From IMG/VR virus record IMGVR_UViG_2706794672_000006: a stretch of DNA of 6,063 nt; one strand, 5' to 3'. The DNA comes from a virus. Its lineage: Duplodnaviria; Heunggongvirae; Uroviricota; Caudoviricetes. Below are positions 2,324 through 4,858 of the stretch, piece by piece (position 1 is the first letter of the stretch; each line of letters begins with the position of its first letter). The position numbers and the translations under genes are program-made. The notes under the pieces were generated by a model. That model ran no database searches and was not told where the DNA came from. It saw only the letters and a list, made by a program, of their open reading frames with translations.

Positions 2324-2347
2324 ATAAAAAACCCGCTCGGCGGCGGG
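2324..2347 (-). terminator. tR'-like intrinsic terminator, copy A
   Basis: Minus strand reads CCCGC-cgccga-GCGGG followed by TTTTTTAT. Identical to copy B. Confidence 0.6.
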
Positions 2348-2384
2348 TTGTAGAAACTCTTCTAACGTCAGGCATAAAACGCCC

Positions 2385-2424
2385 ATAGTTATGACGAATT
2401 TACCACAGATTCCGGAAAAATCAA
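2385..2424 (-). promoter_or_regulatory. pR'-like Q-dependent late promoter with pause-inducing element, copy A
   Basis: Minus strand: -35 TTGATT (2419-2424), 16-nt spacer, extended -10 TGgTAAATT (hexamer 2397-2402), then cgtcat and the -10-like element AACTAT followed by GGG (2385-2390). Layout matches the recalled lambda pR' (TAAATT-6 nt-AACGAT-GGG). Confidence 0.55.
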
Positions 2425-2425
2425 C

Positions 2426-3664
2426 CTAGTTACCTTTTTTANNNNNNNNNNNNNNNNNNNNNNNNNNNNNNNNNNNNNNNNNNNNNNNNNNNNNNNNNNN
2501 NNNNNNNNNNNNNNNNNNNNNNNNNNNNNNNNNNNNNNNNNNNNNNNNNNNNNNNNNNNNNNNNNNNNNNNNNNNNNNNNNNNNNNNNNNNNNNNNNNNN
2601 NNNNNNNNNNNNNNNNNNNNNNNNNNNNNNNNNNNNNNNNNNNNNNNNNNNNNNNNNNNNNNNNNNNNNNNNNNNNNNNNNNNNNNNNNNNGCCCGAGCG
2701 CCAGTGCCGCTTTCACTGTCGAACCCAACCCCATGAAAAAATCTGCAATCAGGTCACCCGGACGACTGCTAGCGCTGATTATCTGCTGCAGCATTTCTGC
2801 CGGTTTTTCGCACGGATGTTTCCCGGGATAGAACTGCACCGGTTTATGCGTCCACACATCGGTATACGGCACCTGCACCGTCACGCCAAAATACCGCCGC
2901 AGATGTTTATATTCACTCAGCAGCTCCGCATACTGCCGGTTCAGTGAGGTATACGTATCCACCAGCTGGTGGTGGAGCTTTTCCAGTTCACCACGCCGAT
3001 GCTTCTCTTCTGCCACCCGGGCAAACAGCGCCTGTAATTTCAGATAATCGCTTTCATTCGGCAACTGCCACTGACCGGCACTGAACCAGTGCGACACCAT
3101 GTTTTTCTTTCCTGTGGCATCTGCAATCTGTTTTGCCGTTATCCCCAGGGCAGCTCGCGCATCACGAAAGTAAGAAATCAGCGGGGCCATCACATGCTGT
3201 TTCAGTGCACTGCCCTTCGCCGCATACCCGGCATCTTTCGGACGATACGGCCCCTGATAATGTTCCGCGAACAGAATGCGCTCTGTGGCGGGGAAATACG
3301 CCCGCAGGCTTTCCTTGTTGCATCCGTTCCAGCGTCCGGACGGCTTCGCCCAGATAATATGGTTCAGCACACTGAAGCGTTCACGCATCATGATTTCGAT
3401 ATCAGATGCCAGGCGATGACCACAGAACAGGTAAAGACTTCCGGCAGGTTTCAGCACCCGCCAGAACTGCGCCAGACACTGGTCCAGCCACTTCAGGTAA
3501 TCATCGTCGCCCTTCCACTGGTTATCCCAGCCCTCAGGCTTCACTTTAAAGTACGGCGGGTCCGTGACTATCAGGTCAACAGAATTTTCGGGTAACGACC
3601 GGATAAATTCCAGGCAGTCGGCGTTGATTAACTCACAACTGGATATTTTTACAGTATTAAGCAT
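2426..3664 (-). CDS. DNA methyltransferase, N6-adenine/N4-cytosine class (DPPY motif N-terminal, FxGxGST motif C-terminal); apparently orphan. True stop lies in or just after the N block
   Basis: MLNTVKISSCELINADCLEFIRSLPENSVDLIVTDPPYF... with motif IV DPPY near the N-terminus and FFMGLGSTVKAALALG near the masked C-terminus. ATG at 3662-3664. The 2426 end is the ORF-track stop reached through 250 masked bases and is not verified. Confidence 0.8.
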   Translation of the reverse strand: MLNTVKISSCELINADCLEFIRSLPENSVDLIVTDPPYFKVKPEGWDNQWKGDDDYLKWLDQCLAQFWRVLKPAGSLYLFCGHRLASDIEIMMRERFSVLNHIIWAKPSGRWNGCNKESLRAYFPATERILFAEHYQGPYRPKDAGYAAKGSALKQHVMAPLISYFRDARAALGITAKQIADATGKKNMVSHWFSAGQWQLPNESDYLKLQALFARVAEEKHRRGELEKLHHQLVDTYTSLNRQYAELLSEYKHLRRYFGVTVQVPYTDVWTHKPVQFYPGKHPCEKPAEMLQQIISASSRPGDLIADFFMGLGSTVKAALALGXXXXXXXXXXXXXXXXXXXXXXXXXXXXXXXXXXXXXXXXXXXXXXXXXXXXXXXXXXXXXXXXXXXXXXXXXXXXXXXXXXXXKKGN

Positions 3665-3696
3665 GGATCATTAAGCCTGTCTCTGATAGGCTCATT

Positions 3697-3715
3697 CTGC
3701 TTTTGCGCAAAGCAG
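3697..3715. repeat. 7-bp inverted repeat CTGCTTT / AAAGCAG with 5-nt loop, about 50 nt upstream of the methyltransferase start
   Basis: Arms at 3697-3703 and 3709-3715 read from the sequence. Confidence 0.5.
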
Positions 3716-3756
3716 TGGGCCTGAGGTTTGCTTGTGAACCCAACGCATGAGCAGAT

Positions 3757-3787
3757 GGCTGGTGGGTGCCCCTAACACCCACCAGCC
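3757..3787. promoter_or_regulatory. Perfect 12-bp palindrome GGCTGGTGGGTG / CACCCACCAGCC with 7-nt spacer; candidate operator or 5'-UTR hairpin
   Basis: Arms at 3757-3768 and 3776-3787 are exact reverse complements. Lies between the winged-helix gene terminator and the methyltransferase start. Immediately upstream on the minus strand is TGTGGTAAAT (3792-3801), the same 10-mer as the pR' extended -10. Confidence 0.55.
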
Positions 3788-3800
3788 GCCCATTTACCAC

Positions 3801-3828
3801 AAATAAAAAAGCCTTCACTGCGGAAGGC
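3801..3828 (-). terminator. Intrinsic terminator directly after the small winged-helix-like gene
   Basis: Minus strand reads GCCTTC-cgcagt-GAAGGC followed by TTTTTTATTT. The stem contains the TGA stop codon (3815-3817). Confidence 0.6.
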
Positions 3829-4012
3829 GTCTGTAACAACCGAACTGATAGTCTGCCAGACCCGCCATAACCAGCTGGGTCAGTATTAACTGGCAGCGTT
3901 CGCGTGAAAGGTAAGTATTCTGCGCTATCTCCCCGACTGTCGCCGGTTCGGTAACGCTTAATTCATTAAACACCACTCTGGCGGTTTCTGTCATATCCTG
4001 CTGTTTTAGCAT
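3815..4012 (-). CDS. Small (65 aa) putative winged-helix DNA-binding protein; general resemblance to PapI/FaeA-type regulators, unverified
   Basis: ATG at 4010-4012 preceded by AGGAA 5 nt upstream. Protein MLKQQDMTETARVVFNELSVTEPATVGEIAQNTYLSRERCQLILTQLVMAGLADYQFGCYRRLPQ has a helix-turn-helix-like pattern. Followed by a dedicated terminator. Confidence 0.55.
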   Translation of the reverse strand: MLKQQDMTETARVVFNELSVTEPATVGEIAQNTYLSRERCQLILTQLVMAGLADYQFGCYRRLPQ

Positions 4013-4130
4013 GTCTTTTCCTTTTCCGGTTAACGTGACACACCAATAACTCTTGTCGAAAAAGCCAGCAAGCTGAAAGACAGGTATTCACCGCCACCAG
4101 CGCGTTTACTGTACTGACGCGATTTCAGTC

Positions 4131-4154
4131 ATAAAAAACCCGCTCGGCGGCGGG
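4131..4154 (-). terminator. tR'-like intrinsic terminator, copy B, ending a leader RNA of roughly 65 nt from pR'
   Basis: Minus strand reads CCCGC-cgccga-GCGGG (4139-4154 on plus) followed by TTTTTTAT (4131-4138). Confidence 0.65.
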
Positions 4155-4191
4155 TTGTAGAAACTCTTCTAACGTCAGGCATAAAACGCCC

Positions 4192-4231
4192 ATCGTTATG
4201 ACGAATTTACCACAGATTCCGGAAAAATCAA
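4192..4231 (-). promoter_or_regulatory. pR'-like Q-dependent late promoter with canonical AACGAT pause-inducing element, copy B, immediately downstream of Q
   Basis: Minus strand: -35 TTGATT (4226-4231), extended -10 TGgTAAATT (hexamer 4204-4209), cgtcat, AACGAT-GGG (4192-4197). Starts 5 nt after the Q stop codon, as recalled for lambda. Confidence 0.65.
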
Positions 4232-4236
4232 CCTTG

Positions 4237-4858
4237 TTACCTAGTTACCTTTTTTAACTGCCGCTCAGCCCATGCTTCTTCAATATCAAACCGGGTCACC
4301 AGCGCATCATAAAATTTCTTAACTGTTTTTTCCCATGACGCGCGTGTTATCTGGTTTGTCACCTCGCATATAGCATTAAATGCCTCCGTTGATGGTAGTC
4401 TTTCATAGCCACGACCACCACAACGCTGGCAGTCTCTGATAACAGGCATACCACGTTTTACCGACTCTTCACGATGAATGGCGACACCACGCCCACGGCA
4501 ATCCTTACAGGCGGTGGAAACCTCACCCTTTCCGCCACACTCCGGACAGGCAACTTTTACCACCTCCCTGACTTTTTTCCATTCTTCCCAGTAAGACGGA
4601 TACACACCTTTCGTACACTTTGCCCATACCGGCGGCTTACCATCCGGATACTGGACCTTGTTTGTAAAAACTACGCTTTCAATAAATTTTTCCCCATAGC
4701 AACAAGGGCACTGCTTTTTACTCGCTGCGCTGCGGGCATAATCCTCAAAAGCGTACGAAGCCATAATGCGCATCACTACCGGTTTTATTTCTGCCGGAAG
4801 TTTTCTCAACGCCGCCACACGATCGCACCGACTGAGTGCATAATCTGCCAGTAATTCT
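4237..4858 (-). CDS. Q: Late-gene antitermination protein Q, lambda-Q family; 5' end masked (207 codons visible)
   Basis: Visible C-terminal part aligns with the recalled lambda Q: YAFEDYARSAAS ~ YADYCRSAA, CKDCRGRGVAIH ~ CRDCHGTGRAVD, DCQRCGGRGYERLPSTEAF ~ ECGRCKGVGYSRMPASAAY, TVKKFYDALV...KKVTR ~ TVKPLYDALV...NAVTR. Sits between rusA and a pR'-like promoter. Stop TAA at 4237-4239. Confidence 0.85.

Follow-up and report, generated by a model that had tools for sequence, protein, structure and literature searches.

The window analyzed here is a 6,063-nt stretch of viral DNA (Caudoviricetes; IMG/VR record IMGVR_UViG_2706794672_000006), whose relevant features are read along the minus strand. 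A Q antiterminator gene is followed by a late leader (copy B), a cassette with a 65-aa ORF and a DNA methyltransferase gene, a masked stretch, a second copy of the leader (copy A) and two tRNA genes:

4237..4858, minus strand: Q antiterminator gene, visible 3' two-thirds of a 273-aa form ending ...KKVTR, stop codon TAA at 4239-4237
4276..4288, minus strand: TGATATTGAAGAA in the Q 3' end, candidate crossover point
4131..4256, minus strand: leader copy B, comprising the Q 3' end and stop, putative pR', pause element and tR'
4231-4226, minus strand: copy B -35, TTGATT, followed by a 16-nt spacer
4212-4204, minus strand: copy B TG-extended -10, TGgTAAATT, with the TAAATT hexamer at 4209-4204, followed by 6 nt
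4197-4189, minus strand: copy B predicted pause element, AACGAT (4197-4192) and GGG (4191-4189)
4156-4137, minus strand: copy B tR' hairpin, with the T-run extending to 4131
3815..4012, minus strand: 65-aa ORF, first gene of the cassette, weakly winged-helix (TrmB-like)
2692..3664, minus strand: beta-class N6-adenine DNA methyltransferase of the M.EcoGI/GII family, visible part, with the 3' end under an N-run
2442..2691, no strand: N-run of nominal length, masking the last part of the methylase gene and the junction upstream of copy A
2324..2441, minus strand: leader copy A, minimum extent, starting with 17 nt of Q 3'-end sequence that carries an 8-bp deletion
2424-2419, minus strand: copy A -35
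2402-2397, minus strand: copy A -10
2390-2382, minus strand: copy A predicted pause element, AACTAT (2390-2385) and GGG
2349-2330, minus strand: copy A tR' hairpin, with the T-run extending to 2324
2211..2286, minus strand: tRNA with a CAT anticodon, whose homologue is annotated in RefSeq as tRNA-Ile (ileZ type)
2034..2110, minus strand: tRNA-Arg (TCT)

On the minus strand, positions 4256-4131 (copy B) and 2441-2324 (copy A) form direct repeats. Sequence comparison bore out the description given in an earlier note on this DNA, in which the copies differ by a single substitution, G at 4194 versus T at 2387 (AACGAT versus AACTAT), and by 8 bp, present in copy B as AGGTAACA at 4242-4235 and containing the Q stop codon (TAA, 4239-4237). 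The proposal that these bases are a tandem duplication in copy B was dropped: with E. coli 300709 as the outgroup, the length of copy B is ancestral, and the copy-A allele carries an 8-bp deletion. Copy A runs into the N-run at 2442-2691 and is still visible at the first readable base, so its 118 nt are a minimum length. Upstream of the copy A -35, the 17 readable bases are Q 3'-end sequence, the rest is masked, and the next visible gene is the methylase. Copy B occupies the canonical place after Q, as the note had it, with the Q stop codon 5 nt ahead of the -35. N-runs make up 16% of the window and are not length-faithful, a run of 250 N corresponding to 245 nt and 473 nt in relatives; for that reason, an estimate of about 160 nt of masked Q 3'-end sequence was discarded. 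A further run, at 4859-5108, hides the 5' part of Q.

A profile search with the Q protein of E. coli TOE17, which is 99% identical, returned PF03589 (E=5e-54), and comparisons of Q with lambda Q (31% identity, E=2e-41) and with chain Q of PDB 7UBM (1e-39) were likewise significant. PF03589 has been assigned to the Q-lambda family (PMC9388147); its equation with the Q family of phage 82 was rejected, since the protein comparisons agree with the published assignment. The window Q shares with its lambda relative the C-terminal VTR end and differs in its 273-aa length, with an insertion of about 66 aa that brings extra CxxC pairs into the zinc-ribbon arm.

All of the elements previously described, namely a -35, an extended -10, a pause element and a hairpin terminator, were located in both copies. 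The common promoter layout, TTGATT-16-TGgTAAATT, is a predicted sigma-70 promoter with the -10 of lambda; a promoter scan missed both instances, which score 8 of 12 against a cut-off of 9. A terminator scan picked up both hairpins, each with a 7-pair GC stem and a T-run, and the copy B fold (-21.4 kcal/mol, z = -2.5) contains the terminator stem in its minimum-free-energy structure. The likeness of the pause element to that of lambda pR' was confirmed on NC_001416, which reads TAAATT-tgactc-AACGATGGG where the window has TAAATT-cgtcat-AACGATGGG. The predicted pause element of copy B is thus identical to lambda's in sequence and in distance from the -10, and it is invariant in five other genera/phages. 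That of copy A, AACTATGGG, retains the A2 and T6 positions and is likewise a predicted pause; T is found at the variant base in 8 of 93 natural copies.

The resemblance to the lambda pR'-qut-tR' region extends to the arrangement as a whole: TG and TAAATT, a 6-nt gap, AACGAT and GGG at +1 to +9, a promoter a few bases past the Q stop, and an intrinsic terminator before the late genes. In contrast to lambda, the window has TTGATT with a 16-nt spacer, a spacer sequence (the putative QBE) that is not lambda's, two leader copies instead of one, and a much shorter predicted terminated RNA, about 65 nt (4197 to about 4133 for copy B) versus 194 nt. The same architecture follows Q genes of 57-62% identity in Klebsiella, Enterobacter, Citrobacter and Serratia, where AACGATGGG is invariant and three pairs of the terminator stem have changed on both sides in a compensatory manner. 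After 273-aa Q genes, a spacer motif, TTTTCC(C/G)GAAT, is kept from Serratia to E. coli, consistent with a putative QBE. The leader stands behind a Q 3' end in 89 of 89 readable IMG/VR copies, and leader B is 100% identical in contigs L030, L031, L032, L035, L037, L039, L040, L041, L042 and L043. Copy A, with its 8-bp deletion, is the rarer and slightly degraded allele, and the only sequence that breaks the conserved 5' stem. A search of the leader against Rfam gave no family at threshold, only weak Trp_leader-like terminator hits (E = 0.06-0.6). Judged by its sequence, each copy is a late leader of the Q-lambda family with a predicted pR', pause site and intrinsic terminator.

The cassette between the leaders opens with the 65-aa ORF, whose match to PF01978 (E=0.0026) lies under the curated cut-off; the exact protein occurs in 32001 blocks of the collection and behind several Q families. 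The methylase gene matches PF01555 (E=2e-44), its translation contains DPPY and FFMGLG (FxGxG), and its relatives measure 349-352 aa. The methylase region shares 94% nucleotide identity with that of phage 1720a-02, whose methylase is very similar to M.EcoGII (PMC5778455). The cassette thus carries a known M.EcoGI/GII-type enzyme, predicted to be a non-specific adenine methylase, of a family that is silent in lysogens and harmful if expressed constitutively (PMC5778455). The cassette itself was found behind Q genes of PF03589, PF06323 and PF06530, and is a mobile moron whose usual place is immediately after tR'.

Downstream of the tRNAs, the 'cargo' mentioned in the note proved not to be a toxin; it comprises a 108-aa ORF, DUF3927, STnc100 and IraM. 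The prophage is a decayed, IS-bounded remnant of the Shigella type, with neither lysis nor structural genes in the downstream part. An E. coli 2D match that seemed to unite the segment labelled down1, the island and STnc100 was set aside because its order differs from that of the window.

Each half of the window, taken separately, is an ordinary layout, and the parentage of the whole is a mosaic. Copy A with tRNA-Ile after it represents a widespread layout without the cassette, detected in 1238 E. coli genomes; the empty site that the note had proposed to look for (Q-pR'-tR'-tRNA) therefore exists and is very common. Over 412 of 412 nt, copy A and its downstream flank are identical to L018 and L022, loci of the Shigella type that lack the cassette, and window positions 6063-5109 and 2441-1624 are 100% identical to them; for copy A joined to tRNA-Ile, identity to Shigella sonnei-type loci is 100%. 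This layout, with a single leader and without the cassette, is represented among lambdoid prophages of E. coli and Shigella by phage mEp460 and the S. sonnei 53G-type remnant, and its Q and leader are 98-99% identical to those of the window. The junction of copy B with the cassette was found in E. coli TOE17 and 14 IMG/VR contigs, and window positions 4858-2692 are 99.95-100% identical to the single-leader cassette contigs L036, L039 and L042. E. coli TOE17 and 300709 and the Stx2 phages 1720a-02 and phiP27 have the same cassette right after the tR' T-run and the same tRNAs; they differ from the window in that the methylase stop lies at most 49 nt from tRNA-Ile, with no second leader. Both parental types are present in the same IMG/VR genome bins (L040, L059).

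The combination of the two halves was seen only in the window. A megablast join test recovered the double layout in 0 of 5426 complete E. coli genomes, and spaced patterns of a methylase followed by a leader gave no match in viral, genome and metagenome contig collections. Among 40 IMG/VR methylase contigs, none has a second leader, and all 40 run straight to tRNA-Ile at +126. In the 92 IMG/VR leader loci, no uninterrupted stretch has more than one copy, in agreement with the earlier statement that a single pR' is the norm; apparent duplications in L040, L041 and L043 were not counted, as only single Ns link their pieces. Searches for exact matches to three proteins, those of the 65-aa ORF, an 80-aa ORF and a truncated DUF1737 fragment, returned single-leader layouts only.

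We hypothesize that the duplication is a scar of recombination between these ordinary layouts, a reading to which we give about even weight, with a 13-nt microhomology as the candidate junction; the double layout is most likely not a new regulatory design. In each copy, pR' would act as a constitutive sigma-70 promoter, with Q loading on RNA polymerase at the -10-like, sigma-dependent pause element (+1 to +9). At the intrinsic terminator tR', about 45 nt beyond the pause, transcription would end in the absence of Q, giving the RNA of about 65 nt, and would continue when Q is present, so that a harmful methylase encoded after tR' would be made only once Q acts. A DNA exchange between a cassette-bearing relative (Q-leader B-cassette) and a cassette-free Shigella sonnei-type remnant (Q-leader A-tRNA) could have had its left crossover in the near-identical rusA/Q region and an ectopic right crossover upstream of the resident leader, likely at TGATATTGAAGAA. 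The cassette would then have the donor leader ahead of it and the resident one behind. The 13 nt of TGATATTGAAGAA overlap the methylase stop codon in the cassette relatives of 100% identity, and a match of this length was reached by 1 of 1000 shuffles. The sequence under the mask would accordingly run from the final 83 nt of the methylase through TGATATTGAAGAA and GCATGGGCTGAGCGGCAGT to TAAAAAAGGTAACTAGG. Against this reading, the junction is masked, and 115 hidden bases are expected where the window has 250 N, a length that is not faithful; both the crossover site and the existence of the structure in an organism are what we infer.

The earlier note had the cassette inserted through recombination between pR' regions. 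The point of insertion stands, the cassette being an indel placed exactly after tR'; the mechanism falls short, since recombination between two pR' regions yields one leader and an additional ectopic junction upstream of copy A, under the mask, is needed for two. The accompanying suggestion that the repeats allow loss of the cassette holds good, as recombination between them would regenerate the empty site. The rarity of the layout is in keeping with this, since homologous recombination is expected to remove direct repeats of about 120-150 nt that lie 1.8 kb from each other. If real, the window would show short-homology recombination in the act of moving a moron into or out of the interval between Q and the lysis genes of lambdoid prophages, and would be a natural case of two Q-loading sites placed one after the other; the understanding of Q antitermination is unchanged.

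A serious, if somewhat doubtful, possibility is that the double layout exists in no cell and is a chimera of two paralogous IS-bounded remnants that arose when the window was assembled, scaffolded or constructed. The two presumptive parents, Q-leader B-cassette and Q-leader A-tRNA remnants, co-occur in Shigella-type genomes. Natural single-leader contigs match all visible segments at 100% (or 99.7-99.95%) identity, and all switches from one sequence type to the other fall under N-runs, which take up a small share of the window and have nominal lengths. In IMG/VR, the records of such genomes are draft contigs with single Ns between the pieces, and pseudo-duplications of a similar kind are seen in them (L040, L043, L059). 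The window's order of island, STnc100 and IraM was found in no fetched locus, and the double layout in none of the collections searched. However, the two copies are not identical and each has flanks of its own, so they are no collapsed or duplicated read pile, and the k-mer graph lacks an edge from the cassette end to the Q 3' end, so that a simple mis-assembly path is not obvious. Were the N-runs scaffold gaps, moreover, the contigs should be seen to end, one with 86 nt of methylase 3' sequence and one with the 3' part of Q, neither of which is visible, and the specific 13-nt microhomology offers a possible biological route. Between Q and the tRNAs, remnants in Shigella and E. coli combine near-identical paralogous modules as a mosaic, and odd adjacencies in this interval thus need read-level confirmation.

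We consider it improbable that the second leader has been selected, be it as an extra Q-loading site and promoter that raises expression of the tRNAs and the genes after them, as a terminator shielding the tRNAs from transcription of the cassette in the lysogen, or as a second copy of a gene for a regulatory short RNA, the part that StxS plays in Stx phages. Copy A does retain every recognisable element, the usual cassette layout has no terminator between the methylase and the tRNAs, and short pR'-tR' RNAs such as StxS and lambda 6S can regulate (PMC7547250). Yet more than 900 cassette-bearing genomes and contigs do without a second leader, polymerase modified by Q at copy B would pass the copy A tR' regardless, and the host element is IS-truncated and lacks late genes. 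The second Q loading site upstream of the tRNAs and cargo, which the note had inferred, hence gains no support as a selected feature from a layout unique to the window, in an IS-bounded remnant, with a copy A that is a rare deletion allele.

There is a similarly slim chance that the layout is real and heritable in a Shigella/E. coli lineage, the repeats of 120-150 nt serving as a recombination switch for frequent loss of the toxic methylase cassette and its regain from paralogous remnants, and the two constitutive leaders supplying a double dose of a StxS-like trans-acting RNA of about 65 nt. By position, a constitutive short RNA ending at tR', of the class of StxS and lambda 6S, is expected from each copy; on reading the 933W leader, which goes with a different Q family and shows no AACGATGGG, no likeness in sequence to StxS was apparent.

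Least probable is an ancestral double layout, in which the cassette arrived with a donor Q 3' end and leader and the single-leader forms are deletion products: repeat recombination does give the cassette-free form, and 933W, with only a 3' remnant of the methylase upstream of ileZ, attests to deletions in the region, but the single-leader cassette form is not derivable from the double form by this route, the cassette stands behind unrelated Q families with no second leader, and the near-identity of the two copies, against about 90% between leaders of cassette-bearing relatives with the same Q family, indicates that the duplication is recent.

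All genes of interest in the window lie on the minus strand and, read 5′ to 3′ on that strand, follow in this order:

first in the window, an IS end
5676-5434, minus strand, an 80-aa ORF
between the 80-aa ORF and Q, minus strand, rusA
4858-4237 (visible part), minus strand, the Q antiterminator gene, its start under the N-run 4859-5108
4256-4131, minus strand, leader copy B (pR′ promoter, −10-like pause element, tR′ terminator)
4012-3815, minus strand, a 65-aa ORF
3664 to at least 2692, minus strand, a DNA methylase gene, its 3′ end under the N-run 2442-2691
2441-2324, minus strand, leader copy A
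after copy A, minus strand, tRNA-CAT (annotated as tRNA-Ile in RefSeq relatives), then tRNA-Arg
after the tRNAs, a partly masked region
1036-847, minus strand, an STnc100 sRNA (133.6 bits)
after STnc100, opposite strand, an IraM/PmrD-like gene
window end, a truncated DUF1737 fragment, then a second IS end

STnc100-like tandem copies occur in related prophages, spaced by a 59-nt 'island'; the window island (1315-1373) lies between two N-runs.

The earlier note had described a duplicated Q-utilisation module, and comparison within the window bears this out: copies A and B are real direct repeats. Both carry a −35 TTGATT, a 16-nt spacer, a TG-extended −10 TAAATT and, 6 nt past the −10, AAC(G/T)AT followed by GGG; the terminator scan placed a 7-pair GC hairpin with a T-run ~40 nt beyond the pause element, and this hairpin is also present in the minimum-free-energy folds. 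A single base differs, G4194 in B (AACGAT) vs T2387 in A (AACTAT), and 8 bp at 4242-4235 occur only in copy B. This 8-bp difference is real and contains the Q stop codon, as had been claimed; it is not a tandem duplication in B, since B has the ancestral length (outgroup E. coli 300709). Across 93 natural copies of the promoter core, 75 have G at the pause-element base, 10 have A and 8 have T; the 8-bp-minus allele occurs in six. Between the 65-aa ORF and the methylase (3828-3786, minus strand), a hairpin with TTTTTTAT is followed by TTGTGGTAAATGGGCGG, which matches the leader −10 region (TGTGGTAAAT) plus the GGGCG following the leader pause element. This element looks like a further leader minus ~13 nt, and may be a relic, or else an extended −10 promoter that serves the methylase itself.

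Loci with 57–62%-identical Q proteins from Klebsiella, Enterobacter, Citrobacter and Serratia served as an independent test, and each has the leader layout directly after Q, as in the window. The spacer motif TTTTCC(C/G)GAAT, the −10, the 6-nt gap and an invariant AACGATGGG are conserved across them, while the GC hairpin and T-run are present in each with differing sequence. In the consensus fold, the terminator stem is kept, three of its pairs having changed on either side; a 5′ stem (AACG/CGTT) is kept as well, copy A being the sole sequence that breaks it. The conserved layout, the invariant AACGATGGG and the compensated terminator stem indicate that the module is a genuine, selected Q-lambda-type late leader, with promoter activity, pausing and Q dependence predicted from sequence.

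The Q protein itself is, judged by its matches, a member of the lambda Q family: it was assigned to PF03589 (E = 5e-54), which is Q-lambda, as PF06323 is Q82 and PF06530 is Q21 (PMC9388147); it matches the lambda Q chain of PDB 7UBM at 1e-39 and is 31% identical to lambda Q over its full length. The two proteins have the C-terminal VTR in common, whereas the window Q carries a ~66-aa insertion in the zinc-ribbon arm. Lambda (NC_001416) reads TTGACT-17-TAAATT-tgactc-AACGATGGG, so that lambda pR′ and the window leader agree in −10, 6-nt gap and pause hexamer, and also in the GGG discriminator, which in lambda occupies +7 to +9 (PMC5001585).

By its PF01555 match the methylase is a beta-class N6/N4 enzyme, and it carries DPPY and FxGxG motifs. 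At the DNA level it shares 94% identity with the methylase region of phage 1720a-02, whose enzyme is very similar to M.EcoGII, a non-specific adenine methylase of 349 aa whose gene is silent in lysogens and whose constitutive expression is harmful (PMC5778455). The 65-aa ORF gave only a weak TrmB-like match. The cassette behaves as a mobile moron, because the pair follows Q genes from three different Pfam families, PF03589, PF06323 and PF06530 (the latter two contexts in loci L003, L005, L006, L008, L009 and L013), with other cargo sometimes intervening (TfpB, AAA_15 and GmrSD/HEPN defence genes). In relatives, it starts directly after the tR′ T-run, and tRNA-Ile follows within 49 nt of the methylase stop. 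Such placement of a toxic methylase behind tR′ is predicted to make its expression Q-dependent. Phage 933W (L079, NC_000924) retains ~100 nt of the 3′ end of an M.EcoGII-type methylase immediately upstream of ileZ (locus ~480-575), stopping just short of the 'pT putative tRNA promoter' annotated at 583-611; this classic Stx2 phage has thus lost the cassette by deletion.

Each half of the window is ordinary, and the window's parentage is mosaic. The cassette-free 'empty site' that the earlier note proposed seeking is common: copy A runs without interruption into tRNA-Ile in phage mEp460 as well as in 1238 complete E. coli genomes. The copy B–cassette junction was found in E. coli TOE17 (99.7%) and exactly in 14 IMG/VR contigs. 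IS-bounded remnants that lack the cassette (L017-L019, L022-L028), among them HE616528 (Shigella sonnei 53G), match the window at 100% over 6063-5109 and 2441-1624 and at 99.7% over 1108-1. Q has 284 aa in these remnants, its stop codon having been lost with the 8-bp deletion. Just three differences separate window Q and leader B from the cassette-free loci, namely a private SNP (4312), the 8 bp and G4194, and homology to these loci ends exactly past the tR′ T-run of leader B. Positions 4858-2692 are 99.95–100% identical to single-leader cassette contigs (L036, L039, L042).

The double layout was unique to the window among the sequences searched. A single pR′ is the norm, as expected, with one copy per uninterrupted stretch in 92 leader loci, and the leader follows the Q 3′ end in 89/89 readable copies. 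A methylase 3′ end joined to a leader was not found in any complete E. coli genome searched, and spaced patterns for the double layout gave no matches in three large collections (viral, genome and metagenome contigs). tRNA-Ile starts 126 nt past the methylase anchor in 40/40 IMG/VR contigs with enough sequence, vs 405 positions in the window, including N-run 2442-2691.

The double layout may be an artefact, as every switch between cassette-type and S. sonnei-type parents falls under the N-runs (1109-1314, 1374-1623, 2442-2691 and 4859-5108). Their lengths are not faithful to the hidden sequence: the 250 N of 4859-5108 (Q/rusA) correspond to 245 nt in every relative, one 100%-identical included, and the 250 N of 1374-1623 to 473 nt in the only natural contigs with both flanks. 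The window order of island, STnc100 and IraM was not found elsewhere, and in IMG/VR the records of similar genomes (L032, L034, L040, L041, L043, L059, L080) consist of several draft contigs joined through a single N, with comparable pseudo-duplications; Q 3′ ends, leaders and cassettes that seem duplicated across such an N were rejected as evidence, their adjacency not being real. However, copies A and B differ from each other, as do their flanks, and no simple assembly path leads from the cassette end to a Q 3′ end.

If the double layout is real, we hypothesize that a cassette-bearing relative and a resident remnant exchanged DNA through two crossovers, one within the near-identical rusA/Q region and one at the 13-nt word TGATATTGAAGAA. 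This word lies in the Q 3′ end (4288-4276) and overlaps the methylase stop codon in 100%-identical cassette relatives (L039, 2037-2049); it is absent from the E. coli 300709 variant of the cassette end, and a shared word as long occurred in 1/1000 shuffles. Both parental types are present in the same genome bins (L040, L059). Such a two-crossover exchange would give exactly the window topology, and it predicts the masked sequence. Direct repeats of this size, 1.8 kb apart, are expected to be unstable; their ready loss would account for how rare the double layout is.

Together, the elements are of known kinds, and the double layout is a rare variant of uncertain reality. A real one would provide two constitutive promoters, each giving a ~65-nt terminated RNA, predicted to be of the class of short terminated RNA represented by lambda 6S RNA and StxS (PMC7547250). 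Q-modified polymerase from copy B would pass both terminators, and the copy A tR′ would stop Q-independent cassette transcription ahead of the tRNAs. The duplicated leader of the earlier note thus stands, and its interpretation in part: a selected role for the second copy as a Q site is unlikely, because the element is an IS-bounded remnant without lysis and structural genes.

In the Shigella-type Q (L018/L025), the 8-bp deletion adds 11 residues (LIFPESVVNSS) beyond the conserved C-terminal VTR, and window 2441-2425 carries the same deleted allele. As C-terminal residues of lambda Q contact the Q torus (PMC9388147), the extended protein may, by analogy, be impaired.
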